NCBI GenBank assembly: GCA_963776275.1
Contig: CAVZMI010000023.1
Location: forward strand, 288,001 to 352,000
Length of the DNA stretch: 64,000 bases
Reading direction: 5' to 3'
Source: Ignavibacteriota bacterium
GTDB lineage: Bacteria; Bacteroidota; Ignavibacteria; UBA10030; CAVZMI01
Shown: piece by piece, positions 9,694 through 57,008 of the stretch
Position numbering within the stretch: position 1 is the stretch's first letter
Layout: each line of letters begins with the position of its first letter
Program-made: the position numbers and the translations under genes
The notes under the pieces: model-generated
Told to the model about the DNA's origin: nothing
What the model saw: the letters and a program-made list of their open reading frames with translations, nothing else
The model's database searches: none

Positions 9694-9710
9694 TAGTATT
9701 CATTTAAGCG

Positions 9711-37539: not shown

Positions 37540-37542
37540 CTA

Positions 37543-37657: not shown

Positions 37658-37675
37658 CCGATGGAGTAATTATCA

Positions 37676-38801: not shown

Positions 38802-39163
38802 GACATTGGCCTCCTTTGTGATTACTTACTATACTGTTATCTGAGAAGATTGTCGATATTCATTAAAAGTGCAAGAACTTTTTTATTTTTTCTTCGATCC
38901 TAGAATGACAGTCCCTACCCCTCTTTTCTGTATTTCGTTCAATATAAGAAATTGCCATATCATTTGCAGTTTTTTCAGAGCGAGGACGGTTTTTCTGTGA
39001 TTATCACACCCCCAACCTTGCAGCAGACCCCGGAACCGGAAAAACAGCTAATTTCTTGAAAATAAAGCAGTAAACGGCACTTTCCTTGGGAATTCTGGCA
39101 ACAAATTATCCTGCATCAGATAAAGACTATACTATCCGGCAATTCAGAGAGACTATCATTGAT

Positions 39164-39955: not shown

Positions 39956-39975
39956 CAAATAAAAAACTCCGTCAC

Positions 39976-41380: not shown

Positions 41381-41416
41381 AGTATTTCCTTTCTGCTTTA
41401 TGAACAATTTACTTCA

Positions 41417-42754
41417 TTAGCGTATACGACGAAGTGCTGCTGCGAAAAACCCGTCGGTTCCCTGAACCGAAGGCAGTAGTCGAACAACGTCACCACCGTT
41501 ACAATCCTTGATACCCCATCGGTCGAGTAACGGTTGGGGTTTTTGTATTACAATATCCGGATTTTCCTTGAGAAAATCCTCTATGACATCATCATTCTCA
41601 AGCCGGAAAAGTGAACATGTCGCATATACAACAGTTCCACCTACTTTAGCACAACGCGAATATCGTTCCAGCAGTTCTCTCTGTGTACGTGCATATTTTT
41701 TAACGTCATCGCCGGTGATGCGCCATTTGAGAAGCGGATTTCTCCGGATCGTTCCGCTGCCGCTGCAGGGAGCGTCGATAATCACAAGATCGGCCGTCGA
41801 TAAAAGATCGTCCGTGTTTCCCTTCTCACCGGTAACTAGTCGCGGGAAAATAATATTTGTACCCGCACGCTTTAAGCGCTGTGTAAGTTGCTTCAGACGC
41901 TCTTCACCGACATCGAGCGCGTGAATGATTCCCTGATTGTTCATAAGAGCCGCGAGGTGCAGCGATTTTCCTCCGCCGCCGGCACAGGCATCAATGACAA
42001 TGTCGGAGGGTTGCGGACCGGCCAGCAGCGAGATAATCTGACTCCCTTCATCCTGAATCTCGTAAAGGCCCTCTCTGTACGACATCAGCGCAGGAAAATT
42101 TACGCGTTTCGGTAACATAAGACCGAACGGCGATAACCTTGTCCGTTCTACCACAATTCCTTCATCGGCAAGCCGTTTCATGCACCCCGGTACATCTATT
42201 TTGAGAGTGTTCACCCGGATCGTCAGCGGTGACTGCTGATGAAGTGCACTGCAGAGCTTTTCGGTTTCGTCATGTCCGTACTGTGTGTTCCATGATTCCA
42301 CCATCCATCGTGGAAAGGAATATTCCACGCTGATACGCTCGACCGGATCATTGCCGATGAATTTCAGGTCTTTCTGCAGTTCGACATTCCGGCAAAATTC
42401 GAGCGGATCGATTCCGGGTTCGACAACATTCCATTGAGCTCCGATTTCCTCGACGACTTTTTCAGGCGGTTCATTCTTAATCCCGACGGCATATGCAGCA
42501 ACCATCCAGATTTTCGGATACACCGGCGGGATCGGCTTTTTTAACTGGCCGAGCATTTCCTGTATCAATCGTTCAATGCGATATGCGTGCCGGAAGAGGT
42601 CGTAGGTCGTCTCCGATATTATCCGACGGTCTCTCGAGCCAAGATACCGGCGTCCAAGAAAAAAACGTGCAACGACACGGTCTGCCGGCAACGGCGATTT
42701 CTGTATTTGATCAACAAGCTCGATAATATGTCCGATATGAGAGGAAGTTTTCAA
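41417..42754 (-). CDS. RsmB/NOP family RNA m5C methyltransferase
   Basis: IQDEGSQ, DACAGGGGKS, DAPCSGSG, YATCS, TDGFF. Confidence 0.92.
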   Translation of the reverse strand: MKTSSHIGHIIELVDQIQKSPLPADRVVARFFLGRRYLGSRDRRIISETTYDLFRHAYRIERLIQEMLGQLKKPIPPVYPKIWMVAAYAVGIKNEPPEKVVEEIGAQWNVVEPGIDPLEFCRNVELQKDLKFIGNDPVERISVEYSFPRWMVESWNTQYGHDETEKLCSALHQQSPLTIRVNTLKIDVPGCMKRLADEGIVVERTRLSPFGLMLPKRVNFPALMSYREGLYEIQDEGSQIISLLAGPQPSDIVIDACAGGGGKSLHLAALMNNQGIIHALDVGEERLKQLTQRLKRAGTNIIFPRLVTGEKGNTDDLLSTADLVIIDAPCSGSGTIRRNPLLKWRITGDDVKKYARTQRELLERYSRCAKVGGTVVYATCSLFRLENDDVIEDFLKENPDIVIQKPQPLLDRWGIKDCNGGDVVRLLPSVQGTDGFFAAALRRIR

Positions 42755-43653
42755 ATCGCCACGACAGGTTTTTTCATTTTTGCGGTCATATACGCATGTG
42801 CCATTCGCGGTGTATTGAACGCCAGTCCCACCTCTCCTTTTCTATTAAGAGCGATCACACCACCGGTACCATTTACTTTCTTTTTGAGAATTCCGATTCC
42901 GTGTTTGGCAGCTGCATCAGGATTTCCACCATTACATGCCATTGAATCGATCACAGCTTTCGCCATGACAATCGTAATTATACCTTCTCCCCACCCCGAT
43001 GCAGATACTCCGCCAATATCATTTTCAGCATAGACACCGGAGCCTATGAGCGGAGAATCGCCAACACGGCCGGGATGCTTATGGGGAGTTCCCCCCGTCG
43101 ATGTACCTGCAACAATTACACCTTTTTTATCCATTGCCACCGCACCCACGGTATCGCCATAATATTCCAGAGAATTCTTTTTCGGGGGAGTAGAATTCCC
43201 GGCATATAATACCTTCCATCGCTTCAGTTCGCGGGAGACAACCAATGTATCTGCCGGGCAGACCTTAAAACCATGTTCACGGGCAAACCGGGCAGCACCT
43301 ACTCCTGCAAGAAGAATGTACTCACTCTCCTCCATAATTTTTCTCGCAATCGAAATGGGGTGCAGAAAGTTTTGCAGGCATGCGACTGCACCTGCACGTA
43401 AGGTTTTCCCATTCATAATTCCTGCATCAAGCTCGATATGACCGAGGGCATTCATGACCGATCCGTATCCGGCATTGAAGGTAGGATCGTCTTCAAGTAC
43501 CATGATGGCACTTTCGACCGCATCGACCGCACTCCCTCCTATTTTCAGGACTTTCCACCCTTTTTTCAGGGCCTGTCGTACACCATGAAGATGAGCATCG
43601 ACCATTTCATCAGGAATGTCCCACGCCCCACCCTGTACTGCAATAGAAATCAT
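42751..43653 (-). CDS. Isoaspartyl peptidase / L-asparaginase (Ntn hydrolase)
   Basis: LEDDPTFNAGYG, DTVGAVA, TSTGG, GRVGDSP. Confidence 0.92.
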   Translation of the reverse strand: MISIAVQGGAWDIPDEMVDAHLHGVRQALKKGWKVLKIGGSAVDAVESAIMVLEDDPTFNAGYGSVMNALGHIELDAGIMNGKTLRAGAVACLQNFLHPISIARKIMEESEYILLAGVGAARFAREHGFKVCPADTLVVSRELKRWKVLYAGNSTPPKKNSLEYYGDTVGAVAMDKKGVIVAGTSTGGTPHKHPGRVGDSPLIGSGVYAENDIGGVSASGWGEGIITIVMAKAVIDSMACNGGNPDAAAKHGIGILKKKVNGTGGVIALNRKGEVGLAFNTPRMAHAYMTAKMKKPVVAI

Positions 43654-43786
43654 TGACGCGATACCTCAAAATTAAGCCTAGTATACAAAAACTCGCAGCA
43701 AGAATCAATCCGACGTTCAGCTTTTTACTGCTTGATTATCCTTTCCCTGTTTTGTAATTTATTTATCGTATTTCCACACCAGTCAC

Positions 43787-44830
43787 ATGTCAAAATTGCT
43801 TCTTTGTATTGAGCAAGAACCGGTGATCATTGCCGAGGGAGCCGTCATAGAACGGCTGCGAAGAACACCCGGAATTTCCCTCGACCCCCACCTGCTCAAT
43901 TCCGCTCTATTGTATAATGATGAAGGAAAGAAATATCTTGAAGAGATCTATCGTCAATACATCGACTGTGCATATCGCCGAAATCTTCCGATGATCGTTC
44001 TCACTCCTACCTGGCGCGCAAATCCCGAACGAATCTCGCGGGCAGGTTTGCCTACCCGCCAGAGTTCAAAGGATGTCGGCGGGCGTGCCCATGATGTTAA
44101 TAAAGATTGTTACGATTTCCTTGCAGAAATACGATCCGGCTATGGTGAATATGCCAAAAAAATATTTATCGGCGGACTCATGGGCTGTTATGGTGACGCG
44201 TATAAACCCGAAGAGGCATTACCTTCCGGGACAGCACATTTTTTCCACCGGGAACAGGTCCGAGCACTTGCGTCGTCCGGCGTCGATTTTCTTTTAGGGT
44301 CGACACTGCCGGCTTTCAGCGAAGCACTTGGGATGGCACAGGCAATGGCCGATTCGGGGTGTCCGTATATCCTGAGTTTTGTCATTCGTGCAAATTGTAG
44401 ACTCCTTGACGGCACGCTTCTCCCGGATGCGATTAACAATATCGATTCAACAGTATCACCTAAGCCAGCAGGATATATGATCAATTGTGTTCATCCGGAA
44501 ATATTTAGGAAGGCGGTGATGAATGCAGGTCAAGATCAATCCTTCGACTCCCCCTCGACTCATCCCACTACGCGGGACTTGCTCGGGGTCGCTCAGGACA
44601 AGGGTCTAGGTCGAGGGTTGATACATAGTAGAATCCTTGGACTCCAGGCGAACACGTCGCTCAGAAGTCCGGAAGAACTTGACGGCCGGGAAGAGCTCGA
44701 CGTGGAAAATCCGGACAGATTTGGCGAAATGATGGCATCGCTTCATAAAGATTTTTCACTCAAAATACTCGGTGGATGCTGCGGCACGGATGAGCGGCAC
44801 ATAGAGTCCATTGTCAGCTCGCTTACCTAA
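43787..44830 (+). CDS. Homocysteine S-methyltransferase family protein
   Basis: TPTWRAN, INCVHP, ILGGCCGTD. Confidence 0.88.
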   Translation: MSKLLLCIEQEPVIIAEGAVIERLRRTPGISLDPHLLNSALLYNDEGKKYLEEIYRQYIDCAYRRNLPMIVLTPTWRANPERISRAGLPTRQSSKDVGGRAHDVNKDCYDFLAEIRSGYGEYAKKIFIGGLMGCYGDAYKPEEALPSGTAHFFHREQVRALASSGVDFLLGSTLPAFSEALGMAQAMADSGCPYILSFVIRANCRLLDGTLLPDAINNIDSTVSPKPAGYMINCVHPEIFRKAVMNAGQDQSFDSPSTHPTTRDLLGVAQDKGLGRGLIHSRILGLQANTSLRSPEELDGREELDVENPDRFGEMMASLHKDFSLKILGGCCGTDERHIESIVSSLT

Positions 44831-44831
44831 C

Positions 44832-44859
44832 TTGACATTTCGTTAATAATTGTTATTAT
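44832..44859 (+). promoter_or_regulatory. Sigma70 promoter (Pc-like) upstream of cassette array 2
   Basis: TTGACA-N16-TATTAT with TG extension. Confidence 0.6.
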
Positions 44860-44974
44860 ACGATAAAAGCGTTATTCTTTTTCCTCCAGAATCATCAGGA
44901 TAATGCATCGGCTTTTTTAAGAATGGAGCGTGAGATGCTCCACAGTATTTCAGAAACTATGGTTGACTGAGTCA

Positions 44975-44997
44975 ACCTAATCATAAGTTAGAACGCA
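44975..44997 (+). other. attI-like site of cassette array 2
   Basis: ACCTAAT-CATAA-GTTAGAACGCA; the last 11 bp are the exact reverse complement of TGCGTTCTAAC (46210-46220), which closes the cassette. Confidence 0.65.
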
Positions 44998-45031
44998 CCG
45001 ATATACATTCACAAATTCGGAGGATATCGAG

Positions 45032-45745
45032 ATGATCAATGACCTTCATGAACATACTATCGGCATCGCCCTAGGTGTTCGATTCAGGGCTAATTTTTCC
45101 ATTGAAGACCAATTGGGTGGAATAATCGATAAGATCCTATACTCGAAGGACTCATATTTCGGACCAAAAGTCTTCCCACTCGTCTACAACAACCCGAATG
45201 AAAAGGTCCTAATAAACGAGAACACCTTTGACAAACTGATTATCAACAACTCGAACATAATTCTCGAGGCAAACTTACTGGACTCGTTCAAAGGCGAGAC
45301 CATAGAAACGATACTCTCGAAATTCAACTCTCAAATTATAGACGGTGTCTTAAGGAACTACCGAGTCACCGAAATAAACCGCATTGGATTCATCCACAGA
45401 TACTTGTTTAAAATAGAGGATCTTGCTAAAACTTTTGTAAATAAAACGATCGGTGCTACTATCGAGGGAATTAACGACATAAATGTTCGCTTTACAAAAA
45501 AAATCCCGCTACCCGAGGCTATGGTAAAAAAGGACGTCAGTGATTACTTGAACGTCATCTTCAACGTTATCAAGCAGGCAGACCGAAACGAACTATTTGT
45601 ATCGGTTGACTTCCAGAAGTTATTCGATCCTTTCCTGACTTCTTCTTCTCAAATCGACTTTGATGATTTCACTAAGTTAGCACGCTCTTTCAATTCCAAG
45701 AGTTTCTTGGGTTGGTTCAATCAAAACTATGGGGTACTCAAATGA
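45032..45745 (+). CDS. Hypothetical cassette protein (TIGR04255-like fold suspected)
   Basis: GGAGG RBS; INRIGFIHRY and FVSVDFQ strands; first gene of a two-gene cassette. Confidence 0.65.
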   Translation: MINDLHEHTIGIALGVRFRANFSIEDQLGGIIDKILYSKDSYFGPKVFPLVYNNPNEKVLINENTFDKLIINNSNIILEANLLDSFKGETIETILSKFNSQIIDGVLRNYRVTEINRIGFIHRYLFKIEDLAKTFVNKTIGATIEGINDINVRFTKKIPLPEAMVKKDVSDYLNVIFNVIKQADRNELFVSVDFQKLFDPFLTSSSQIDFDDFTKLARSFNSKSFLGWFNQNYGVLK

Positions 45746-46182
45746 AATCAAGAAGCAGCCATACCGGTAAATCCATCGCGGACAAAGATTACTATGCAAG
45801 AGCCATCAGGAAGATGGAAGCCGAGCCCACCGTGGATGAAGCAGTTACTTTCTCTCAGACTGACGATACGCATCGAGATTTTAGCGTTCCCACGTCACGA
45901 AACAGAAGACCAGAGCCTGTTTTTTATCAGATTTCAGAGCACTTCAGAGAGAACTGGGTGAAATGGGTTCTCGCTGTTGCTGGGTTTGCATTGATGTATT
46001 TAATGGGCGATTCAAGAGCAACAATCACAGGCATCGACACCAAAGTGCAATATATTCAGGAGGACATAAAAGATCTAAAACAATCCAACCGCGAGAATTT
46101 ACAAAAGATTCAGAATCAGGAACTCCAAGTTCAAAAAAGCGAAATGCGCATCGAAAATCTCGAGAAGAAAAAGAGACCATAG
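45742..46182 (+). CDS. Hypothetical single-TM coiled-coil protein
   Basis: ATGA overlap with the upstream gene; WVKWVLAVAGFALMYLM followed by heptad repeats. Confidence 0.65.
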   Translation: MKSRSSHTGKSIADKDYYARAIRKMEAEPTVDEAVTFSQTDDTHRDFSVPTSRNRRPEPVFYQISEHFRENWVKWVLAVAGFALMYLMGDSRATITGIDTKVQYIQEDIKDLKQSNRENLQKIQNQELQVQKSEMRIENLEKKKRP

Positions 46183-46213
46183 CCATCACACGAAACAACT
46201 TTTCGCCGTTGCG

Positions 46214-46433
46214 TTCTAACCGGTCGCTCAAGCTGACGTAATGAGCGCCCGCCTTCGTTATAAAACAAACTACAGCGGGCAGGTGGTTAAGCATGGCGCG
46301 CATAGGTCTTGTACAAAATTGAAAGCGCAGTAAATGAACTTGGTTCTTGTAGTACATTTTGAAAGTTATCGTTGCGGCTGCTCGTTTTTTGCGTCCCGCG
46401 CTTTTTGCGGGGCTTAGCCGCCATCCGTTAGTT
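46214..46433 (+). repeat. Long attC-like site (220 bp)
   Basis: TTCTAAC-CGGTCGCTCAAGCTGAC ... GCTTAGCCGCCATCC-GTTAGTT. Confidence 0.85.
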
Positions 46434-46469
46434 GGTGCCCATTCCATCATTTACATAAGGAGGACACTG

Positions 46470-46913
46470 ATGCCCCATCCCAAGAATCAACTCTATGTCT
46501 ACCTTTTCAATCGTATTGATAGCTCAATCGATAAAGGATATTTCCTTGAGTCTTCTTGGATTGCATATGCTATCATTGAAGACAGGTTAGATTCCATTCT
46601 TGTCAAGGTCACAAATTATAAGGGGCGTTTGATAAGTCGCAAATTGGAATACTTATCCCGCATTTCAAATCCATTTGTTCGCACCGAGTTCCCAGCTGAT
46701 TTTATTAAGAGAATTAACAATTGGACAAACCGCAGAAATAATCTGACACATGAGATGGCGAATGCACGCCTTTCAATTCAACAAATCACTGATCGCTCAA
46801 AGCAGATCGCACTTGAAGGAGAAAAGCTTGCGCATGACGTGTCAAGTGCCGTAATGCGGGCGAAAAAGCATCTGAAGAAAAAAAGTCGCCAGCCAACCAA
46901 CGACTCAAGCTAA
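46470..46913 (+). CDS. Small HEPN-like protein
   Basis: AAGGAGG RBS; YAIIEDRL and RRNNLTH (RxxxxH). Confidence 0.7.
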   Translation: MPHPKNQLYVYLFNRIDSSIDKGYFLESSWIAYAIIEDRLDSILVKVTNYKGRLISRKLEYLSRISNPFVRTEFPADFIKRINNWTNRRNNLTHEMANARLSIQQITDRSKQIALEGEKLAHDVSSAVMRAKKHLKKKSRQPTNDSS

Positions 46914-47072
46914 CCGAATGAGTCCCGCAAAAAATACAAGGCAAGCTGTGCGCGCAAAATTAATGGCGCTCAAAGGTCTGGTGTAATTTGAGAGTCATCT
47001 TCGTAAAACTCGGTTTGTGTAGTACATTATTCTTAAATTTCATTGTGGCAAATTAGCCATCATCTGTTAGGC
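46891..47072 (+). repeat. Long attC-like site (182 bp)
   Basis: AGCCAAC-CAACGACTCAAGCTAAC ... TTAGCCATCATCT-GTTAGGC. Confidence 0.75.
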
Positions 47073-47094
47073 GGCTGATATTCTGGAAGAATAT

Positions 47095-48141
47095 ATGGCA
47101 TCTCAATATGAAAACAGAACTAGTCCTGCATATGCCGATGTAATGCGCGGGTTAGTCAAGCCCTCTATGGCAAACAATCGGTTTATCTTAAAATGGTGGA
47201 CAACAAAACATGATGAACTTATCAAACAACAAATGTCAAAGTGGCAATGGTATTGGTTCCACTATATAAAGGATGAAGTTATCCTGCACACAGATTCTTC
47301 AATTATCGAGCATTGGAAGCGCGAAGATCCTGCATGCCGACGCGGTATAGGGACAGGTGCATGGTATAACGTCCTTGAATTTTTTGCATATGCGCGTGCT
47401 GAACAGATGAATCTAATAGGTTTAGTACGAGAACCAAAATGGAAATTGTGTCCATTATGTAATAACAAGTTCTTGGAAAATTCTCTCCCTGAACCACTTG
47501 CCAAAAAGCTTGGAGTAGATGGACTTGATTTTTGCGCTCCTTGTCTTACACCCAAAATTTTGCAAAGTACGGGAAACGACATTTTGACAAAAGAAGAGGT
47601 AAAGGAATATTTAAGGAAGTTATCCTCCATAATTCAAGCGATACCACACCAAGGATTTGGTGAAGGAGAGGAGGATATATTATACTTGAATTATGAACAA
47701 CGACTAGCAGCCCTGCAATTAATGTCGAATAAGCCATCAACGAAACACGTTAAGAAATTGTTTCTTTCTTGGCTTCATGCGTTGATAGAATCTGATATAC
47801 TCGAGGATGGAACGAGAAAAACAAGTCGAGGAACGATGTGTTTAGCAAAAGATGGTCATGCATGCCGCTCTCTCGCGGAGAAAACATTAGATGATTTTCT
47901 CTTTAATCATAGTGTCCCACATACACGCGAACCGTATTATCCAAATTCCAATTATCGTGCAGACTTCGATGTTAAAGGCGTGTATATAGAATACTTCGGA
48001 TTAATGGGAAATTATTTATATGACCAAAAGATCCAAGAGAAAAAGAAAATCGCTAAAGAAGTTGGTATTCGAATGATTCCTATTTATCCAAAGAACCTAT
48101 TAAATACCGTCTGGCTGAGTGAGACACTTCTTTCTATATGA
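47095..48141 (+). CDS. Zn-finger plus PD-(D/E)xK nuclease-like protein
   Basis: CPLC...CAPC; F.SW..AL repeat-like motif; RSLAEK.LDDFL...RADF...IEYFG. Confidence 0.7.
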   Translation: MASQYENRTSPAYADVMRGLVKPSMANNRFILKWWTTKHDELIKQQMSKWQWYWFHYIKDEVILHTDSSIIEHWKREDPACRRGIGTGAWYNVLEFFAYARAEQMNLIGLVREPKWKLCPLCNNKFLENSLPEPLAKKLGVDGLDFCAPCLTPKILQSTGNDILTKEEVKEYLRKLSSIIQAIPHQGFGEGEEDILYLNYEQRLAALQLMSNKPSTKHVKKLFLSWLHALIESDILEDGTRKTSRGTMCLAKDGHACRSLAEKTLDDFLFNHSVPHTREPYYPNSNYRADFDVKGVYIEYFGLMGNYLYDQKIQEKKKIAKEVGIRMIPIYPKNLLNTVWLSETLLSI

Positions 48142-48150
48142 TTTGTTTTG

Positions 48151-48292
48151 CAGCCGCCTCCTAAGTAACTCATGAGTAGGAGTGCGTGGGCAGTGGTACA
48201 TGTTAAGTTATCGCCTGCTCGCCGGCCTGTCCGCCGTAGTGAAACGAAGGCGGAAGTGTTATTCACGTAGGCGTAGCGACCATCCATTAGTT
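48151..48292 (+). repeat. Degenerate attC with REP insert
   Basis: CAGCCGCCT is complementary to the cassette start AGGCGGCTG (47069-47077); ends CCATCC-ATTAGTT (GTT changed to ATT). Confidence 0.6.
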
Positions 48293-48304
48293 AACAAGGG
48301 AAAA

Positions 48305-48769
48305 ATGAAAAAGAAATTATTATATTTTACACTACTTGCATTCTCAATATTTATTTTAATATGCGGATGCAATAAGAAAGAAATTAATTCACCCAATTCT
48401 ATGTCAATTGAATATCTTTCTTTTCAAGGCAATGGTTGTACTTCTTCAAATGTTTTATCAAAAACTAATGACGAAGCAGTTTTGAATTGGCAGTACGTGA
48501 ATGGCGTTCTTCAAATAGGCGTATTATTTAGTGCTCAATGTGTTGCTTCTATGAAGGATAGTGTTCTGGTATCAAATAATATCATTGATATATACCTTTC
48601 GGATACAAGTAGTGTTAGAGCTAAATGTAATTGTCCCTACAAAGTGATATTTAATTTTAGAGTAGAAGGAAATAATGAAATAAAAATATCATTTTATTAT
48701 AAACCTCAATCAGAATATTATTTGTTAGCTGATACAACCTTGATATTAATTGATTTACATGTTCGTTAG
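48305..48769 (+). CDS. Hypothetical lipoprotein
   Basis: MKKKLLYF...ICGC lipobox; low GC. Confidence 0.7.
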   Translation: MKKKLLYFTLLAFSIFILICGCNKKEINSPNSMSIEYLSFQGNGCTSSNVLSKTNDEAVLNWQYVNGVLQIGVLFSAQCVASMKDSVLVSNNIIDIYLSDTSSVRAKCNCPYKVIFNFRVEGNNEIKISFYYKPQSEYYLLADTTLILIDLHVR

Positions 48770-48794
48770 GGTTTTCACTTTTTATTATTTTGCG

Positions 48795-48918
48795 GTATAA
48801 CCAGCGGCTCCCCGCAAACAATACGGGGTTTCACACAAAACGTTCAACAAGCTGACCCCGACCAAGAGTGTGTCGGAGCGGCCCGCCACAAAACTGGCGG
48901 GTAAACCATCCGTCAGAT
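48795..48918 (+). repeat. Degenerate attC with a 38-nt insert
   Basis: GTATAAC-CAGCGGCT[38 nt]CAAGCTGAC ... CCATCC-GTCAGAT. Confidence 0.65.
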
Positions 48919-48944
48919 GTAAAAGGAAATTAGCAGGAGGAAAT

Positions 48945-49682
48945 ATGAAATATTTAATTCTTCTTTTAACTTCTCTTTTGTTTTTATCTTGTTCAGATGA
49001 ACAAATAGTAAATCCAATTTTATTCCCAATTGATGAAGCAACAATTGGCGTCAGGAGCAAAATATTCTATCCTTCACTGGAATCGAATCAGATATTAAGC
49101 ATAGAGGATTTTGAATATAATATTAATGGTCAATTACAAAAAAAGATTTATTATAGCGGTAATAGGGAAATGATTTCACATTACGAGCTTTTCAACTATG
49201 ATAACAATGGAAAGCTTATATACAAATTGAATTTTCACAATAACATAAATTCTCCGACGGGATTTATTCTTCTGGATTCTACTATTTATTTATATTCTGC
49301 AAATTTACTTACTACAGAAAAAATAACTTATCCTTATGCAAGTTACGATATACTATACAACTTTGAATATGATGGAAAATATCTTATAAAAAAAACAAAA
49401 TATCATAACGAGGAATTAGAATCGTACATTATTTATAATTATAAAGATGGTATAATTCACAAGGAAATAATTTACTATAAGAATAATAGCATAACTGAAT
49501 CAAAAGAATATAAATATAAAAATGCAGTTTTAGTGGAAACAGTTTACTATGCCTCGAATAATGAAGCGAAGAGAAGAATAAGCTATAGTTACAATAATAA
49601 TGGAAAAATAGTAATAGAAAAAGTCGATGAACTTTTCGCTTATAGTTCGTCATTACCATACGTGGTAAAATATGAGTATTAA
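48945..49682 (+). CDS. Tyr-rich repeat (YD-like) lipoprotein
   Basis: GGAGG RBS; LFLSC lipobox; repeated Y.Y..NG.L. Confidence 0.7.
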   Translation: MKYLILLLTSLLFLSCSDEQIVNPILFPIDEATIGVRSKIFYPSLESNQILSIEDFEYNINGQLQKKIYYSGNREMISHYELFNYDNNGKLIYKLNFHNNINSPTGFILLDSTIYLYSANLLTTEKITYPYASYDILYNFEYDGKYLIKKTKYHNEELESYIIYNYKDGIIHKEIIYYKNNSITESKEYKYKNAVLVETVYYASNNEAKRRISYSYNNNGKIVIEKVDELFAYSSSLPYVVKYEY

Positions 49683-49730
49683 AACGTATTGGTGCCGTAG
49701 TCCTAAAGGACTGCTATGCTGAGGTTAACC

Positions 49731-49789
49731 GCTCTATCCGCCAGAGTGTTATTCACGTAGGCGGAGCGGCCATCCGTTAGGCGGCAATT
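49731..49789 (+). repeat. Right half of an attC with REP insert
   Basis: GCGGCCATCC-GTTAGGCGGCAATT; shares AGTGTTATTCACGTAGGCG with the site near 48256. Confidence 0.65.
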
Positions 49790-49844
49790 CATAAATCCTG
49801 GCGGTTACATGACAAATAAAATCAACAATCTCGAAGGACGTACA

Positions 49845-50486
49845 ATGAAAGCTCGCATTCTTCTTCTTATAATTATCACGTTCTTTTTTGTCCTGATTTC
49901 TGAAGCACAAATCAGAGTTGGCCTACAGACAGGTCTGAATTTGGGGAGCTTAACATTACCAGACAATCTTGCCTCTAATGCTACAAGGAAAAATCTTACC
50001 GGTTTCACTATTGGAGGCGTTGGTGAACTTGCTCTTACAAATTCAATTTATCTTCAAATTGAACCTCGCTATATACAAAAAGGCTTCAAATCAGAGATTA
50101 CAGATGCTACAGGCACGGCAAAGGGAACTGAGACTATCAATTATTTTGAGTTGCCCATCCTAATCAAAGTAGAGTTTGGAGGGTCTTACTTACGGTCATT
50201 TGTTCTTGCAGGACCAAATATTGGCTTTTTGCTTTCAGCCTCTGAGGAAGTTATTGATTTTAGTGGACAGTCATTTCCTGTGCTCGACACTAAATCAAAT
50301 TACAAATCATACGATGTTGCTCTTGATTTCGGTGCAGGCGTAGAATACAGAATAACATCAACTCTTTCCTTGTTTTCTTCCGGACGATATTCTCTCGGTC
50401 TTGTAAATGTCTATGATGTTCCTGGTTATTCAGGAGAAACACGCGGTATCCAAATATATATTGGTGCGTTATTTAGTCTGGATTAA
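49845..50486 (+). CDS. Outer-membrane beta-barrel (PorT-like) protein
   Basis: Signal peptide; EPRYIQKG, YFELPILIK, AGPNIG, GAGVEY. Confidence 0.8.
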   Translation: MKARILLLIIITFFFVLISEAQIRVGLQTGLNLGSLTLPDNLASNATRKNLTGFTIGGVGELALTNSIYLQIEPRYIQKGFKSEITDATGTAKGTETINYFELPILIKVEFGGSYLRSFVLAGPNIGFLLSASEEVIDFSGQSFPVLDTKSNYKSYDVALDFGAGVEYRITSTLSLFSSGRYSLGLVNVYDVPGYSGETRGIQIYIGALFSLD

Positions 50487-50515
50487 TTGCCGCCTATCCA
50501 ACGTATCAAGCTGAT
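50485..50515 (+). repeat. Left half of an attC (truncated)
   Basis: AATTGCCGCCTATC is 13/14 complementary to the cassette start at 49776-49789, followed by TCAAGCTGA. Confidence 0.65.
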
Positions 50516-50561
50516 GTAAGGAGCTGGGATACTTTAAGCATGGCAATCTTAGGAGGAATCT

Positions 50562-51482
50562 ATGAAGCATCATTCAGGAAAGAGGATAAACATAAACCTA
50601 GTCAAATATTCCATAATCGGTCTCGCAATAATACTGGTCTTTGTATTCTTATCTTTCTTCGCAAAGCAATTCTCAAAAACTAATCTGACAGTTGGTTGGG
50701 GCGACAGGAAAATATCGATTGAGACGGCCGGTCTAACAAATGCGGTGACTGCATCAAAAGAGACTTATATTGACTCGGAAATAGGATTTGCTTTTACTAA
50801 ACCAGAAAATATTTCCATAAGGATTGAACCGCCACTTATCGGGATTCGAAGTTATCTTAACTCTGATGGCGGAAACGTGAGTGAAAAGGAGTTTACTCAA
50901 ATTATCTCGGATGCCGGTGGATACTATGGCAAAGGAGAAATAGGTAATATGCTTGAAAACATGAAATGCTTTAGGTTCATTGTTGGTGAACCTATCTCGG
51001 TTGAACTGACTGATCAATCAACAAGCGACTATCTTGAATGGGTAATCCCAGGACTTGTGCAACAAAATAAGCTGCAAAAGAAAGATATTCCAAACTTTAG
51101 AAAGCAACAATTCGGAAATATGCCTGCCACTTTATCGAATTCCTTCTCAATTACAGTATTTAAAAAGAGCTATTTAGAAAGTCTTCCTTTTAAATATAAT
51201 ATTGTCCGGCTTGTCCTTGAAAGTAGTCATTCGATGCGAGCCTGGGTGAAAAGCATCGCGGCGGATGATAGGGCTACGCTTACTGCGCTAACCGTAGACA
51301 TAAAGAACATAAAGGTGAACGGATTAATCAAGGATTTGCAAATTGAAAAAATGTCTTTGTACACAGAGAATAGTAAATATTTCTTCCACGTAGAGTCTTC
51401 ATATTCCCCTCAAACAAACAGTCCCGAAATCGTTTGGAAAGTGCTGGAAGAAATGATTCATTCGTTTCGGGCAGCGATTTAG
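50562..51482 (+). CDS. Hypothetical membrane-anchored protein
   Basis: AGGAGG RBS; N-terminal TM helix. Confidence 0.7.
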   Translation: MKHHSGKRININLVKYSIIGLAIILVFVFLSFFAKQFSKTNLTVGWGDRKISIETAGLTNAVTASKETYIDSEIGFAFTKPENISIRIEPPLIGIRSYLNSDGGNVSEKEFTQIISDAGGYYGKGEIGNMLENMKCFRFIVGEPISVELTDQSTSDYLEWVIPGLVQQNKLQKKDIPNFRKQQFGNMPATLSNSFSITVFKKSYLESLPFKYNIVRLVLESSHSMRAWVKSIAADDRATLTALTVDIKNIKVNGLIKDLQIEKMSLYTENSKYFFHVESSYSPQTNSPEIVWKVLEEMIHSFRAAI

Positions 51483-51676
51483 GGATGGCTGAGCGGCTAC
51501 CTCTGCGCGATGAATAAAAGCATCGGCTGACGGGCAAAGCTGTCCCAATAAACGCTCCGTTGAAAAGCACATGGTAAATTGTTACATTTAGCATGGCGAG
51601 TATATGTACATTGCAGATTAATCTTAAGAGCAGATGATCGAGTTTTTTGAAAAAAAATAAAAGAAAGGGTAATGCC

Positions 51677-52915
51677 ATGTGCCTCAATACGATAAGAAAC
51701 AAATTATCAAGCCTTATATTGATAGTATTTGCTTTGGTGGCGGCAGGTTGTTGCCCATCTCCCACCGGACCATCAGAAATACCGGGCGCAGCGACCATTG
51801 ATTTAAACGTCCCTCAGCAGCTTATCAGGGGCTTTGGCGGCGTAAATATGCCCGGATGGATTCCCGATTTGACTTCTAATCAAGTCCAGACGGCTTTTGG
51901 CACCGGGACCGGTCAAATTGGTCTGACCATACTGCGCATTCGCGTCTCTTACGATTCGATGGAATTTAATCTGGAAGTTCCCACTGCACTGCTGGCAAAA
52001 TCGCTCGGAGCAACAATATTTGCATCACCCTGGACACCTCCGGCTTCAATGAAAACAAACAATAATATCGCAGGAGGCGCTCTCGATACTAATTATTATG
52101 CGGCTTATGCGGCCCATTTAAAATCTTTCGCCGATTATATGTCAAACAACGGCGTTCCTTTATATGCCGTATCGGTTCAGAACGAACCAGATTACTCGGC
52201 AACATATGAAACCTGCGTTTGGACCCCATCACAATTGCTCAAGTTTGTCAAAAATAATGTGCAGACAATCGGCACCAGAATCATCGTACCCGAAGTGGGA
52301 AATTTCGATCATGCATTTTCCGACCCTATACTCAACGATCCTGTCGCCGCAGCGAATGTATCCATCATCGGCGGACACATTTACGGAGGAGGGCTCACAA
52401 GTTATCCTCTGGCCATCAGCAAAGGTAAAGAGGTATGGATGACCGAACATTGTGATACTGCCAGAACATGGACTGCTATTCTCGGAACAGCCAAAGAAAT
52501 TAATGATTGTATGAATGCGGACATGAACGCTTACGTGTGGTGGTATATCAGAAGGTTTTACGGCCTGATCGACGACAACAGTAACATCACCAAACGAGGT
52601 TATGTAATGTCTCAATATGCTAAATTCATTCGTCCGGGATTCTATAGGGTAAGTGCTACAGCCAATCCTCAGACAAATGTCGATGTCACTGCATATAAAA
52701 AAGGCTCCAAGGTGGTCATCGTTGCTTTAAACAGAAATTCATCTTCAACCGATCAAACATTTACGATCTGGAACGGGGCACCATATATGACGTTTACGCC
52801 CTATATCACATCAAGTACTAAGAATTGTGCACAGGGAAGTGATATTGCCGTACCAAACGGTAGTTTTACCGTTACTCTTGATTCATCTAGTGTGACGACT
52901 TTCGTGTTGAACTAA
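51677..52915 (+). CDS. GH30 (subfamily 8-like) glucuronoarabinoxylan endo-xylanase lipoprotein, copy 1
   Basis: IRGFGG, ASPWTPP, SVQNEPD (acid/base), WMTEH (nucleophile), AYVWWYIRR; lipobox AAGC. Confidence 0.9.
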   Translation: MCLNTIRNKLSSLILIVFALVAAGCCPSPTGPSEIPGAATIDLNVPQQLIRGFGGVNMPGWIPDLTSNQVQTAFGTGTGQIGLTILRIRVSYDSMEFNLEVPTALLAKSLGATIFASPWTPPASMKTNNNIAGGALDTNYYAAYAAHLKSFADYMSNNGVPLYAVSVQNEPDYSATYETCVWTPSQLLKFVKNNVQTIGTRIIVPEVGNFDHAFSDPILNDPVAAANVSIIGGHIYGGGLTSYPLAISKGKEVWMTEHCDTARTWTAILGTAKEINDCMNADMNAYVWWYIRRFYGLIDDNSNITKRGYVMSQYAKFIRPGFYRVSATANPQTNVDVTAYKKGSKVVIVALNRNSSSTDQTFTIWNGAPYMTFTPYITSSTKNCAQGSDIAVPNGSFTVTLDSSSVTTFVLN

Positions 52916-52952
52916 AAGTTAAGACAATACGTTTGTGTTGTTTCGATAAATC

Positions 52953-52983
52953 ATCTCCTTGCTTTATCCAAAGGCAAGGAGAT
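52953..52983 (+). terminator. Hairpin after GH30 copy 1 (repeated at 54594-54624)
   Basis: ATCTCCTTGC...GCAAGGAGAT. Confidence 0.55.
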
Positions 52984-53182
52984 TCTGTCCTCTACGGTAG
53001 TTAGACTTCCGTGTAGAAGATTCTGTGGCCGGCGGATGCTTTATAGTAAGAGTCAATGATCAGACTGGAGAAGCACAAGTCATATAGGGACATGAAATAT
53101 TTGCCGCTTAGCCAGTCCCTCCCCACAAATAACACGTGATTCCACATAAAACGTTCAACAAGCTAACGGAATGAACGCCTAA

Positions 53183-53211
53183 TTGAAAAGCACGGTGAAA
53201 ATGTTTACATT
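53183..53211 (+). promoter_or_regulatory. Sigma70 promoter of GH30 copy 2 (homologous promoter at 51560-51588)
   Basis: TTGAAA-N17-TACATT in both copies. Confidence 0.6.
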
Positions 53212-53299
53212 TTGCATAACGAGCATAGGTGCAGTCCAGATTTATCTAAAGAGAAGATGATCAGGTATTTTGAAAAAAATCAAATGAAAGGGTAAAGTT

Positions 53300-54556
53300 A
53301 TGTGCCTTAATACGATAAGAAACAATTTATTAAACCTTATACTAGTATTTACTTTGATGGCGGCAGGTTGTTCAAAGAAAGACACAATTAACGGACCTTC
53401 AGATGAATCGGGGACTGCCTCCGTTGATTTAGCTAATACCCACCAGGTGATAAGGGGCTTTGGTGCTGCGAACATACTTCCCTGGCGTCCTGATATGACT
53501 GTTGATCAAATCAACACGGCTTTTAGTACCGGAACAGGACAATTAGGTTTCACCATACTTCGCCTGCGCGTACCGCCTGACACATCTCAGTTCGCCATTC
53601 AGGTTGCTACTGCTCAGTTAGCACATGCTCAGGGAGTGACAATCATAGCTTCTCCCTGGACTCCACCTGCTTCGATGAAGACCAACAATAATATCGTTGG
53701 AGGCGAACTCAAGACTGATTCTTATGCAGCCTATGCGGCGCATCTGAAAGCGTTTGGCGATTATATGTCGAGCAACGGTGTTCCGTTGTATGCTGTATCC
53801 GTTCAAAACGAACCCGATGTAACGGTCACCTATGAGTCCTGCTATTGGAATGCAACACAAATGGTTAACTTTGTGAAGAACAATGTGCCCTCTATCGGAA
53901 TCAATATCATCGCAGATGAGTCAATGAATTTCAGCCACACCATTACAGATGCGATATTGAATGATCCTGTTGCCGCTGCGAACCTTTCCATTGTCGGTGG
54001 TCATCTGTACGGAGGAGGGCTAGTGAGTTATCCCCTAGCTATGAGCAAAGGGAAAGATTTATGGATGACCGAATATCTTGATACTATTACTACTTGGTCT
54101 CATGTTCTTGCCACAGGCAAACAAATTAATGATTGTATGAATGCGAGTATGAATGCGTATATCTGGTGGTATATTGTTCGCTTCTACGGACCGATCGATG
54201 ATGGTGAAAGAGGAGGTACTAAAGGAAACGTAACCAAACGAGGTTATGTCATGTCGCAGTACGCCAGATTCGTTCGTCCGGGATACTATAGGGTAAGTGC
54301 CACAGCCAGCCCTCAGACAAATGTTGATGTAACTGCATATAAAAACGGCTCCAAGGTGGTCATTGTCGTTTTGAACAGAAATTCATCTTCAATCGATCAA
54401 ACATTTACGATCCAGAACGGGACAGTCACGACGTTTACGCCCTATGTCACATCAAGTAGTAAGAATTGTGTACAGGGAAGTGATATTACTGTATCAAACG
54501 GTAGTTTTACCGTTACTCTTGATTCATCGAGTGTGACGACTTTCGTGTCGAACTAA
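53300..54556 (+). CDS. GH30 (subfamily 8-like) xylanase lipoprotein, copy 2
   Basis: SVQNEPD, WMTEY, AYIWWYIVR; lipobox AAGC. Confidence 0.9.
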   Translation: MCLNTIRNNLLNLILVFTLMAAGCSKKDTINGPSDESGTASVDLANTHQVIRGFGAANILPWRPDMTVDQINTAFSTGTGQLGFTILRLRVPPDTSQFAIQVATAQLAHAQGVTIIASPWTPPASMKTNNNIVGGELKTDSYAAYAAHLKAFGDYMSSNGVPLYAVSVQNEPDVTVTYESCYWNATQMVNFVKNNVPSIGINIIADESMNFSHTITDAILNDPVAAANLSIVGGHLYGGGLVSYPLAMSKGKDLWMTEYLDTITTWSHVLATGKQINDCMNASMNAYIWWYIVRFYGPIDDGERGGTKGNVTKRGYVMSQYARFVRPGYYRVSATASPQTNVDVTAYKNGSKVVIVVLNRNSSSIDQTFTIQNGTVTTFTPYVTSSSKNCVQGSDITVSNGSFTVTLDSSSVTTFVSN

Positions 54557-54888
54557 AAGTTAAGACAATACGTTTGTCTTGCTTCGATAAATCATCTCCT
54601 TGCTTTATCCAAAGGCAAGGAGATTCTATCCTCAACGATAGTTAAACTTCCGGGATAAGAATCCCCAGCCGGCGGACGCAGCCGTGCTCCATTATTTTTG
54701 AAACGTAAAATATCTCTTAGCTGCAGCGATAAAGAATAACTCGATAGAGAAAATCCGGTAACTTATGGAAAGATGATAGCGTCGCTTCGTAGAGGTTTTT
54801 TGACTCAAAATACTCGGAGGACTCTGTGGGACGGATGAACGCCATATAGAATTAATCGTTCACTCACTCTAACAACAGGGAGAGTACC

Positions 54889-55563
54889 ATGAAAAATTTC
54901 ATCATTTACACTATCATTTCATTAAGTATGATCTCTCTCGTCCATGCACAGGATATCGATATTTCTTCGAAGAGCGCAAAAGCCAGGATCGGAGATATCG
55001 ACATCTCGGTGAAAAAAGCGCCTTTTATTCAGGGAGACTGGGAACTCTCGATGTCCGGAGCGCTCGGACAATATACGACGAAAACTACCACCTCTATGAA
55101 TTCCTGGAATTATGGTAATGAATCAAAAGAAAATTTCGCCACCATCTCTCTTACAGCCGGATACTATTTTATCGATTGGCTGTCGCTTGAACCGGAAGTG
55201 AACCTCTTTGCATATGAGGGAGGACGGCCGGGAGAATCGGTCCTATTAAATCTTTCGTTCACATATCCGCTAGAACACTCTATCGTGGCTCCTTTCATTC
55301 GGGGAGGGTTTGGACTTGGTAATGCCGGCTTTATTACGGGAAATCTTCCATTTTCCTCTTTTGTTTCTGATAAATTCGATGTGAAAACATTCAATGCAGG
55401 TGCCGGAGTAAAACTTCTGATCGCTCAAAGTGTCGCGCTTAAGATAGAGCTGAATTATCGATATCAAACCTATACAGAAAATTATACCGGCTGTATCTTA
55501 TATTCAGTCAATAATAAAAATTCAATGATCAGACTCTTTGTCGGGTTTTCTGTTCTATTGTAA
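54889..55563 (+). CDS. Outer-membrane beta-barrel protein
   Basis: Signal peptide; LSLEPE, PFIRGGFG, GAGVK, ELNYRY. Confidence 0.75.
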   Translation: MKNFIIYTIISLSMISLVHAQDIDISSKSAKARIGDIDISVKKAPFIQGDWELSMSGALGQYTTKTTTSMNSWNYGNESKENFATISLTAGYYFIDWLSLEPEVNLFAYEGGRPGESVLLNLSFTYPLEHSIVAPFIRGGFGLGNAGFITGNLPFSSFVSDKFDVKTFNAGAGVKLLIAQSVALKIELNYRYQTYTENYTGCILYSVNNKNSMIRLFVGFSVLL

Positions 55564-55597
55564 TACCATCATAAGCTGTAAGTGACACCGAAAACAG

Positions 55598-55627
55598 AAA
55601 GGGAGCCTCCATTAAGGGGCTCCCTTC
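55598..55627. terminator. Bidirectional terminator between convergent genes
   Basis: AAAGGGAGCCTC-CATTAA-GGGGCTCCCTT. Confidence 0.65.
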
Positions 55628-55652
55628 TATTATTGAGGCATCAATTTTTTTA

Positions 55653-57008
55653 TTAAATATCCTTACCCTGGACGATAGGAATAAATCGAAACGATCCATC
55701 CGTACCAACATCGACAGAGATCGTATTCCCTTCGGCAATTTCTCCTGCAAGAATTTTTTCAGATAATTTATTCACGACATGTTTTTGAATTATCCGTTTA
55801 AGCGGACGGGCACCAAACTGCAGATCGTATCCCGCCTTTGCAAGCCACGTCTTTGCCGAATCGGTGAAATTGAGTATGATATTCTTTGCTTTCACCAATA
55901 CCTGTAGATTACGGAGCTGCAAATCAACAATTTGAACTATATCGTCGCGTGTAAGAGTTTTAAACATGATGATTTCATCGACACGATTAAGGAACTCCGG
56001 ACGGATCGTCTGTTTGAGCAGGTCGAATAGTTTAATCCTGACAGCCTCCATGACCTCATTGCGGTTTACATCGGTCATGTTCTGCGTCCACTCCATGATG
56101 ATATTCGATCCGAGGTTCGAGGTCATGATGATGATCGTATTCCGGAAATTAACAGTCCGTCCTTTGCTGTCGGTCAGCCGGCCTTCATCCAACACCTGCA
56201 GAAGCACATTGAACACCTCCGGATGCGCCTTTTCGATTTCATCAAGCAGCACAACGGAATAAGGTTTCCGCCGGACTGACTCGGTAAGCTGTCCGCCTTC
56301 CTCGTAACCGACATAACCGGGCGGCGCACCGATGAGACGTGATACGGAGAATTTTTCCATATACTCGCTCATGTCAATGCGCACCATTGCATTTTCATCG
56401 TTGAAGAGCGACTCGGCAAGTGCACGGGCAAGTTCGGTCTTTCCGACTCCGGTCGAGCCAAGAAAAATAAATGATCCGATCGGTCTTCGCTCATCCTGCA
56501 ATCCCGCTCGCGCACGACGCACGGCATCGCTCACTGCCTGGACTGCCTCGACCTGATCGACCAACCGTTCGTGTATCCGTTCTTCAAGATGCAGTAATTT
56601 CGACCGCTCGCTTTCGAGCATGCGGCTGACCGGGATACCGGTCCATTTTGCCACGATCTCTGCAACGTCCTCGGCATCGACTTCTTCCTTCAACATTTTC
56701 CGATTTTTCTGAACTACTGCGAGCTCTTGTGTTGCGGCTTTCAGTCTTTTTTCGAGGTTAGCAATTACTCCATAGCGCAGTTCGGCGACTTTTGCAAGAT
56801 CGCCTTCGCGTTCTTTCTTTTCAGCCTCGTTTCGCGCTTTCTCGATCTCGGATTTCATTGTCCGTATAGATTGTATGAGATTCTTCTCATTCTGCCAGTG
56901 TGTTTTCAGCTGAGTGCGGACTTCGTTGAGATCTGCAATTTCTTTTTCAATCTCATAGAGTCGCTTTTTTGTCGTTTCCTGCATTTTCTCTTGTGTAAAT
57001 TCAGTCAT
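55653..57008 (-). CDS. clpB: ClpB C-terminal part (rest of the M domain plus NBD2)
   Basis: [45 protein letters not shown]. Confidence 0.92.

Follow-up and report, generated by a model that had tools for sequence, protein, structure and literature searches.

How does a row of gene cassettes with integron-type recombination sites come to stand in a chromosome with no integrase beside it? The question is raised by array 2, which occupies positions 44831-54740 of the DNA presented here. The window, by which we mean the whole stretch of 64,000 nucleotides that was analysed, is G000:C23:288001-352000, G000 being the Ignavibacteriales-like assembly that holds it (3.70 Mb, 38 contigs, 96.4% complete, 5.3% contamination); positions given without a contig or locus name refer to the window. 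The first-pass annotation, made from the sequence alone, had described array 2 as an integron-type array without an integrase. This description was borne out: the arms of the recombination sites, an attI core and cassette turnover at G/TT (the slash marks the junction) are all present, and no integron integrase (IntI) was found in the assembly. We consider, with a probability of about 0.8, that array 2 is a CALIN (cluster of attC sites lacking an integron integrase), that is, a degraded integron array which has an attI-type site and a promoter-like leader but no integrase, either adjacent or elsewhere in the assembly. The assignment is made because no IntI passes the profile cut-off in G000 or in G009, a congener from the same genus that is 99% complete. 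Contig G009:C3 of the congener, called L029 below, is the closest named record to the window (MAG, metagenome-assembled genome: Bacteroidota bacterium SPRUCE 29).

Array 2 consists of a leader with an attI-like core, six cassettes and then older remnants that include two GH30 genes. All its open reading frames (ORFs) are co-oriented on the + strand. Its features and borders are given below; attC length is counted from R'' (CTAAC-like) to R' (GTTAG-like), and fractions are complementary positions between cassette ends.

43787..44830, + strand: flanking homocysteine S-methyltransferase gene (PF02574, E 3e-33)
44697-44830, + strand: left direct-repeat copy, the last ~134 nt of the methyltransferase gene (alignment, blastn)
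44832..44859, + strand: promoter-like site, candidate equivalent of the cassette promoter Pc (TTGACA, 16 nt, TG-TATTAT; consensus match)
44961..44991, + strand: attI-like core, palindrome GGTTGACTGAGTCAACC followed by CTAATCATAA/GTTAG (motif shared with intI-adjacent attI)
44988..46427, + strand: cassette 1, ORFs 45032-45745 (237 aa) and 45742-46182 (146 aa) with attC S1 (ends 11/11, 7/8 beyond the core)
46210..46431, + strand: attC S1, 216 bp (46216-46431), both arms intact (nhmmer, regular-expression scan)
46428..47066, + strand: cassette 2, ORF 46470-46913 (147 aa) overlapping its own attC (ends only 4/8)
46889..47070, + strand: attC S2, 178 bp (46893-47070), degenerate arms (repeat families, regular-expression scan)
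47067..48286, + strand: cassette 3, ORF 47095-48141 (348 aa; ends 7/8 once a 7-nt insert in R'' is skipped)
48151..48290, + strand: attC S3, of a second type, with R'' GCCT[CCTAAGT]AAC in its left part and ...GGCGTAGCGACCATCCATTAG in its right part (repeat family D13)
48287..48912, + strand: cassette 4, ORF 48305-48769 (154 aa), whose N-terminus resembles that of a lipoprotein and closes with Cys (cassette ends 3/8)
48797..48916, + strand: attC S4, third site type, TATAAC-CAGCGG-CTCCCCG hairpin ... TTCAACAAGCTGAC ... CCATCCGTCAG (repeat family D7)
48913..49776, + strand: cassette 5, ORF 48945-49682 (245 aa, lipoprotein-like; direct reading and nhmmer)
about 49683-49780, + strand: S5, right-half site only (nhmmer right arm 49759-49780, E 9.4e-5)
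49777..50560, + strand: cassette 6, outer-membrane beta-barrel ORF 49845-50486 (213 aa; PF13568, E 2.3e-21; ends 13/14, 8/8)
50485-about 50560, + strand: S6, left-half site only (direct reading)
50562..51650, + strand: ORF 50562-51482 (306 aa, matching no family) and a spacer of attC origin, now decayed (repeat family D9)
51677..54556, + strand: two diverged tandem GH30-family genes, 51677-52915 and 53300-54556 (PF02055, PF17189)
54740..54870, + strand: right direct-repeat copy, the decayed last ~130 nt of the methyltransferase gene (77% identity to 44705-44826)

The three start/end complementarities by which the first-pass annotation had delimited cassettes were all found where it had placed them. 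GTTAGAACGCA (44987-44997) is complementary to TGCGTTCTAAC (46210-46220) at 11/11 positions, AGGCGGCTG (47069-47077) to CAGCCGCCT (48151-48159) at 9/9, R'' being split there by 7 nt (CCTAAGT) before AAC, and GTTAGGCGGCAATT (49776-49789) to AATTGCCGCCTATC (50485-50498) at 13/14. The inverse cores of attC, R'' (RYYYAAC) and R' (GTTRRRY), are thus both recognised, and R'' matches the first bases of the cassette to which it belongs. A genome-wide scan with ATCYRTYAR-type seeds for a 14-nt reverse complement up to 4 kb downstream gave 21 matches of at least 12/14. All four matches at 13/14 lay within cassette arrays, whereas 15 of the 17 at 12/14 lay outside and represent background. When the 8 nt 3' of GTTAG were compared with the 8 nt 5' of the next R'', eight of the eleven junction pairs in G000 (three of five inside array 2) were complementary at 7/8 positions or more, against 8% after random re-pairing. 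Arrays beside a true intI in relatives gave 39 of 43 such pairs, against 7-10% on re-pairing (two arrays).

The arms of the array sites were searched for genome-wide with nhmmer profiles of the left and the right arm. An order-level sample of 151 genomes was scanned for IntI (TIGR02249 cut-off) and for the left-arm motif TAAC-N6-CTCAAGCTGAC, with one mismatch tolerated and the reversed motif as a control. The motif was present in 91 of the 151 genomes with a maximum of 251 copies (G073), whereas the reversed control gave 0-2 copies per genome; 60 genomes had an IntI above the cut-off. In G073, G113 and G107 the 20 kb divergently upstream of intI are a dense array with the left arm of array 2, and the arms CTAAC-N6-CTCAAGCTGAC and GCTTAG-N9-GTTAG are identical in array 2 and in these three intI-linked arrays. 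S1, with the arms CTAAC-CGGTCG-CTCAAGCTGAC ... GCTTAG-CCGCCATCC-GTTAG, is colinear with a 183-bp site of G107, including the internal stretch TTAAGCATGGCG.GCATAGG...GTACATTTTGAAAGTTATC, and has ~33 extra nt near the 3' arm. Since arms, complementarity and colinearity all match intI-linked arrays, the sites are regarded as members of the true-integron attC family of the order.

Within array 2 the nhmmer profiles picked out the right arms of S1, S3 and S5 and, of the left arms, only that of S1. S2, S4 and S6 were recovered by direct reading, by a regular-expression scan and by the repeat families D8 (copies at 46411, 47050, 48270 and 49760) and D10 (copies at 46228, 46905, 50506 and 53158). These families and nhmmer agree with the earlier claim that the two proximal sites share their arms, with the restriction that those of S2 are already degenerate (CCAAC...CTCAAGCTAAC and ATTAGCCATCATCTGTTAG). 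The S3 type also occurs in L029, at 11931 and 15250, and the S4 type recurs in an array on C6. The claimed decay of sites with distance from the promoter holds only in part: S1 is intact, S2 degenerate, S5 and S6 are half-sites and remnants lie beyond, but S3 and S4 are other site types. Rfam gave no match over 44000-56000 at E up to 1. As to the products of the cassettes, neither ORF of cassette 1 has a Pfam or PADLOC family, the ORF of cassette 2 has a match to ABC-3C MC3 below threshold, and that of cassette 4 has no family above threshold. The cassette 3 ORF has a partial match, over residues 248-335, to PDC-S69 (E 2.9e-9), which PADLOC lists as a candidate defence family; PADLOC gave no other match among eight cassette proteins.

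For the proximal sites the first-pass annotation had given 220 and 182 bp. Measured from R'' to R' they are 216 and 178 bp; the larger values include extended R boxes. S1 and S2 are indeed outside the classical attC range of 57-141 bp, as quoted in a section of PMC5371416. This is a feature of the lineage and not of the locus: long size is a property of the lineage's attC family, which has a large and branched centre and measures 145-195 bp beside true intI. The 46 sites of G073 and G113 are nearly uniform at 145-149 bp, and six sites of G107 have 150-195 bp. Sites of G000 exceed these lengths, probably because of small insertions (S1) and fusions of two site types. Outside array 2, lengths of 250 bp (window 9713-9962) and 284 bp (C4) occur, and two sites on C30 measure 331 and 405 bp. 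Those at window 9713, C4:2987 and C30:3504 are G107-like up to about ...GCCGCAGCT(TA) and then continue with a 3' part of the second type, ...CCGCCGG...GGCGGAGCSSCCRTCYGTTAG; this second type is present whole at 48151-48290 and in L029. Such hybrid sites may be fusion scars, each left by a deletion between two neighbouring sites.

The modules inserted in the sites are mostly array-specific, the exception being one ~60-nt repeat in the 405-bp C30 site. Invasion of site centres by small elements was considered and dropped, that repeat being the sole module not confined to arrays. It lies at 3754-3816 of L013 (= C30); elsewhere it forms tandem pairs at C8:3428-3545 and C20:91427-91531 and occurs singly at C30:18.0 kb and C32:76.8 kb. 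A reading of the conserved internal module (TTAAGCATGGCG..CATAGG...GTACATTTTGAAAGTTATC) as a Bacteroidota-type promoter was also rejected: the motif is not kept in the G107 copies, and the module belonged to the centre of the site from the ancestral state on.

Beyond array 2 the genome has arrays at C4:0.3-3.9 kb, C30:0.4-11.5 kb, C6:149.9-152.3 kb (- strand) and C23:133-151 kb, a single site on C25 and the site at window 9713. The last of these belongs to array 1 (window 8765-9962), which has a short, classical-looking attC of ~75 bp ending in GTTAG at 8836-8840; a cassette with ORF 8857-9693 and ends complementary at 8/8 positions follows, and then the fusion-like 250-bp site 9713-9962.

The arms of S1 can be read as 5'-CTAAC CG GTCG CT-C-AAGC...GCTTAG CCGC CATCC GTTAG-3'. 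By sequence, the R boxes would pair over 5 bp, lengthened by cassette-specific bases. The L boxes would pair over 6 bp (CT-C-AAGC with GCTTAG), with one extra top-strand C in L'', which is a G in the bottom strand, and the spacer is asymmetric (CG versus CATCC). In the short stem adjacent to the L box both strands have changed in a compensatory way between lineages: G107 has GGCG/CGCC, and the C30 and C4 sites of G000 have GCGG/CCGC. Bottom strands were folded and compared with shuffles. Those of four G073 sites fold like attC (z-scores -2.5 to -4.9, 60 mononucleotide shuffles): the R boxes form the terminal stem, an internal loop separates it from the L stem, in which a G is bulged out, and the centre is branched. 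The arms of S1 are base-for-base homologous to the relatives' sites that show this fold.

The leader is 156 nt long (44831-44986) and is closed by the attI-like core, CCTAATCATAA/GTTAG. The motif TAATCAYA(R)GTTAG has a single occurrence in the 3.7 Mb of G000. It is found at the attI of G073, G077 and G113, 200-210 nt from the start of intI, and the intI-adjacent attI of G107 has the near variant TCTAATCAGA/GTTAG. A 27-nt core pattern with two degenerate positions, run against metagenome contigs, matched two of them, L050 and L051, the latter identical to L029. In L050 the core matches exactly; a divergent intI pseudogene starts 105 nt away, and the first cassette has 13/13 start/end complementarity; no similarity to the leader was found in L050 outside the core. 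Judged by these sequences, the head of array 2 holds what appears to be an attI-type site, and the crossover would fall between G44987 and T44988 (G/TT). The CCTAA-N6-GTTAG layout of the core resembles the simple site of attI1. The promoter-like site 44832-44859 is the best sigma-70 consensus match in 44700-55000 (11/12, with the TG extension) and is conserved in L029; the total number of sigma-70-type matches over the region is not above that in shuffles. It is a candidate Pc that would read into the cassettes.

Comparison with the congener located the point at which array 2 varies. The upstream flank (window 34334-44826) is 94.6-95.0% identical to L029, and the leader (44832-44991) is 84% identical as far as CTAATCATAR/GTTAG; the two sequences diverge exactly at G/TT of the attI-like core. 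Over the cassettes (44991-51544) L029 matches by attC fragments only, and from the GH30 pair downstream (51544-56482) identity is 96.6%. Between its attI and its GH30 pair, L029 has ~4.6 kb with six different ORFs and its own sites. The coding parts of the window cassettes were found nowhere in G009 (the longest match, 162 nt, is attC), and none of the L029 cassettes was found in G000. The comparison of cassette content proposed in the first-pass annotation thus revealed no cassette shared with the congener, with the variation at the promoter-proximal end. The C23:133-kb array and its counterpart on G009:C17 are partly shared, in a different order, with 98% identity in shared cassettes and 82-95% in the flanks.

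As had been annotated, no intI is adjacent to array 2 and the gene upstream is a methyltransferase, namely a homocysteine S-methyltransferase (PF02574). Because a decayed copy of its end lies at 54740-54870, where translation meets a frameshift and stop codons, array 2 is seen to be a block of ~9.9 kb with the 3' end of this gene directly repeated at its two borders. L029 has an equal direct-repeat arrangement, which therefore predates the split of the two genomes. The position of the block between a working and a decayed methyltransferase 3' end therefore suggests that a single insertion into the gene's 3' end, before the split, brought the block in or rebuilt it. A direct repeat of this kind would be the expected footprint of circular or linear DNA that carries a surrogate gene end and inserts into a gene 3' end. 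No integrase was found within the block. An empty site was not found among relatives: G018 has no methyltransferase homologue and the others are too distant (35-47% identity).

The methyltransferase gene itself holds an in-frame, GC-rich stretch with palindromic ends (44540-44627), which has 88 nt in the window versus 16 nt in L029. The ORF is still open and PF02574 is matched end to end. Partial copies of this stretch are present at C23:88.8 kb and on C30 and C20.

The integrase was searched for in the whole G000 assembly with the TIGR02249 profile (cut-off 265 bits) and with a true IntI protein of the same family as query. None of nine profile matches passed the cut-off (best 137.6 bits), so the genome search for intI suggested in the first-pass annotation came out negative, and the protein query gave nothing spanning residues 175-231. 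The best profile matches were a 311-aa recombinase (PF13495 and PF00589) at C23:235.7 kb (135+107 bits) and a copy of it on C22. Both skip model positions 181-234, which are the IntI-specific region. The 311-aa protein shares 35% of its residues with true IntI in the N-terminal part and 51% in the C-terminal part, scores well above Xer-like proteins and is absent from G009. The C22 copy has 96.5% nucleotide identity to the C23:235.7-kb gene and is broken by a GIY-YIG element. Its reading as a second system was rejected, since the C22 and C23:235.7-kb loci are variants of each other with 96-99% identity. More generally, contig C22 repeats parts of C23 (234.6-236.7 kb) at 94-99% identity with extra insertions. 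This duplication suggests that the bin includes another strain or haplotype, consistent with the 5.3% contamination.

Relatives of the window have remains of the missing gene. The congener has no IntI above the cut-off. On its contig G009:C20 (L049, 7262-8860) lies a relic of 39 residues (RKYPNANTEWEWQYIFP...) at 8231-8347 (- strand), with 49% identity to the part of the G018 IntI that is specific to IntI. The relic points away from an attI-like core (TCTAATCAAAT/GTTGG), which is followed by another cassette array. Beside the relic, where intI would be expected, the gene of an unrelated tyrosine recombinase (L049 7262-8215) is inserted. No part of the region seen in the relic was found in G000. 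In L050 the intI pseudogene matches the G018 IntI with 59% identity over residues 1-68 and 47% over residues 65-161, and the gene has two in-frame stops and an insert of ~290 nt encoding a GIY-YIG-like ORF. In G018 itself a search of 40 kb upstream of an intI of the same family revealed no arms, and the contig ends 162 nt past the gene. The simplest reading of these data is that intI is being lost in the genus while the arrays persist.

The small GIY-YIG-type ORF that interrupts the L050 intI (636-1430) is flanked by 16-nt inverted repeats, and a related element lies in the 3' end of the C22 recombinase gene (C22:10316-10620). Genes of tyrosine recombinases may thus be the target of a mini-element of this kind.

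Array 2 as a CALIN would have the following history. An IntI of the kind common in the order would have recombined the folded bottom-strand attC of circular cassettes with the attI core at G/TT (44987/44988), and the cassettes would have been stacked behind the leader, newest first. The distal units (the half-sites, the 306-aa ORF and the GH30 genes) would be old cassettes whose attC has decayed, and which are now fixed because of that decay. The lineage would then have lost intI, through states such as the pseudogene of L050 and the 39-residue relic of the congener, until none is seen, as in G000. At present array 2 is most likely static unless an integrase is supplied in trans.

Several observations weigh against this assignment. 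The assembly is 96.4% complete in 38 contigs, and the C4 and C30 arrays run off contig ends, so that an intI could sit in a gap. Both congeners are without intI and their cassettes are wholly different, which calls for past integrase activity in both lines or for homologous exchange. The cassettes starting at 46427 (4/8) and 48286 (3/8), two of the five in array 2, have no complementary ends. Upstream of its last ~35 nt the leader is not convincingly alignable to the intI-attI spacers of relatives; the attI core has therefore been separated from the integrase side.

The folds of the long sites speak against it as well. In unconstrained minimum free energy (MFE) folds of the bottom strands of S1 (229 nt) and S2 (187 nt) the R and L boxes are unpaired, and with z-scores of -0.02 and +1.35 these folds are no more stable than shuffles. 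The pair probability of the S1 R boxes is 0.13-0.19, enforced R pairing costing just +1.1 kcal/mol, and cofolds of the arms only gave z-scores of -1.8 to +0.4, versus -2.8 for one relative's site. A covariance model, R1, trained on the 46 integrase-linked attC sites of G073 and G113, matched only the left arms at 9710 (E 0.0026) and 46213 (E 0.0031), with misplaced 3' ends; the other 37 matches listed had E of at least 0.44, and no further array 2 site was below E 1. R1 was for this reason discarded as a test of membership for long sites. Because neither folds nor R1 support the long sites, their membership in the attC family rests on homology and the cassette signature, not on thermodynamics. 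The first-pass annotation had named two outcomes that would tell against it if they occurred together, unpaired R and L boxes and a gene content invariant among relatives. The former was seen, weakly, in the unconstrained folds of S1 and S2; gene content, in contrast, clearly varies.

A gap in the assembly, or an unbinned replicon, might hold an intact intI that acts in trans on array 2, which would then be part of a split but complete integron. The arrays that run off contig ends fit such an arrangement, as do the many intI genes of the order that sit at contig ends, the intact S1 and the full turnover of cassettes since the congener split. In addition, 24 of the 28 genomes with at least five copies of the left-arm motif have an IntI above the cut-off (a post hoc count); the exceptions are G000, G009, G003 (fragment only) and G090. 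We nevertheless regard this as unlikely, given that 3.70 Mb contain neither an IntI nor an IntI-specific fragment, that the 99%-complete congener also has only a relic, that the matching intI of L050 is a pseudogene, and that most array 2 sites are degenerate or half-sites. It is likewise possible but doubtful that the orphan attI and promoter are still a live cassette acceptor, served by integrases that visit on mobile DNA or via transformation, and that poorly folding attC of 180-400 bp are usable. If true, the size and folding limits of attC recombination would be widened, and CALINs with an attI would evolve on by site-specific insertion.

Could the arrays be maintained by a recombinase other than IntI? 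The 311-aa tyrosine recombinase (C23:235.7 kb, with its C22 variant) is one candidate by its scores on the IntI model and its identity to true IntI, and Y1 (IS200-like) proteins are another, one Y1_Tnp-like ORF lying divergently upstream of the C23:133-kb array and a second inside it. The former, however, is without the region that IntI uses for attC binding, and which is reportedly required for it. It lies ~97 kb from array 2 with no arms nearby, and it is absent in the congener, whose arrays are equally varied. The Y1 matches are partial (32 and 60 residues), and the arms and attI match those of integrase-linked integrons exactly; we therefore consider maintenance by either protein very improbable. 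Lastly, the sites might be palindromes of the repetitive extragenic palindromic (REP) or miniature inverted-repeat transposable element (MITE) kind, unrelated to integrons and complementary by chance. The long sites do fold no better than shuffles, a dispersed ~60-nt repeat is inserted in the 405-bp C30 site, and a GC-rich palindromic insert is present in the methyltransferase gene. This idea is already contradicted by cassette-specific complementarity far above the re-pairing controls, by arms identical to those of intI-adjacent arrays, by an attI core that adjoins intI in relatives and by the confinement of most site modules to arrays, and it is hardly credible. The degraded, integrase-less array remains the preferred reading.

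IntI reportedly also inserts cassettes at genomic sites (attG). Array 2 resembles the result of such secondary-site insertion in that cassettes lie 3' of a host gene and a promoter, with a GTT junction and no adjacent intI; it differs in that its junction is preceded not by arbitrary host DNA but by the attI core, which adjoins intI in relatives and the intI pseudogene in L050. Works on attG insertion are cited within one part of PMC4889954 (refs 9, 10, 60). With sedentary integrons of chromosomes, among them the superintegron of Vibrio cholerae and its Vibrio cholerae repeats (VCR) and the large arrays of G073, G113 and G107, array 2 shares attI, G/TT junctions, R''-L''...L'-R' arms, R-box complementarity, cassettes mostly of unknown function and a branched attC centre; VCR have a branched variable terminal structure (VTS), according to an excerpt of PMC5371416. 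Unlike them, array 2 is without intI and has at least three site types, partly decayed, whereas the sites of the relatives are near-uniform at 145-149 bp.

The term CALIN is used in the defining passages of Cury et al. 2016 (PMC4889954) and IntegronFinder 2.0 (PMC9024848) for clustered attC sites without an integron integrase. Array 2 agrees with that usage in having at least two clustered co-oriented attC sites and no intI nearby. It differs in retaining an attI core and a promoter-like leader, and in site length (178-216 bp, elsewhere in the genome up to 405 bp). In the text excerpted from PMC4889954, about half of 279 CALINs come from genomes that lack IntI, and their proposed origins include the loss of intI; integrons have been reported in Ignavibacteriae in a passage of PMC9024848. 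CALINs and the integrons of Ignavibacteriae are already published, and the concept of the integron is unchanged. Literature searches on attC in Ignavibacteria/Ignavibacteriae yielded IntegronFinder 2.0, its preprint and an unrelated soil study, and among these we found no description of the attC length of this family, although the supplementary tables of IntegronFinder may list such sites.

The interest of the locus is modest and lies in an orphan attI, in an attC family above textbook size with fused derivatives up to 405 bp, and in a lineage caught at several stages of integrase loss. The stages of decay within this one lineage are intact integrons with hundreds of cassettes, the pseudogene of L050, the relic of the congener and the attI array of G000 without an integrase. 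The default upper limit of IntegronFinder for attC is 200 bp. Because several sites exceed it and would be missed at that setting, cassette arrays in Ignavibacteriales and similar lineages have probably been under-counted. The long sites are natural substrates for asking how large or how poorly folded a recombining attC can be.

The C23:133-151 kb array has two partial Y1-type IS200-like ORFs, L009 6289-7203 (- strand; C23:132.3 kb, divergent, upstream) and L010 9327-9665 (+ strand; C23:155.3 kb, inside). It also holds a TIR-domain ORF, a DUF2971 ORF and a 1027-aa restriction-modification gene of the Eco57I/MmeI type.

The two GH30 genes at the distal end of array 2 are probably old, fixed cassettes. 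Each has an attC-derived remnant at its 5' side and a 31-nt palindrome at its 3' side; the duplicates are 71-94% identical, and the pair is 96.6% conserved in the congener. Over 51544-54679 the identity between the two copies is ~75%, yet it reaches 88-94% over the last ~430 nt, with the shared 31-nt palindrome ATCTCCTTGCTTTATCCAAAGGCAAGGAGAT. The 3' parts of the two genes seem to have been homogenised.

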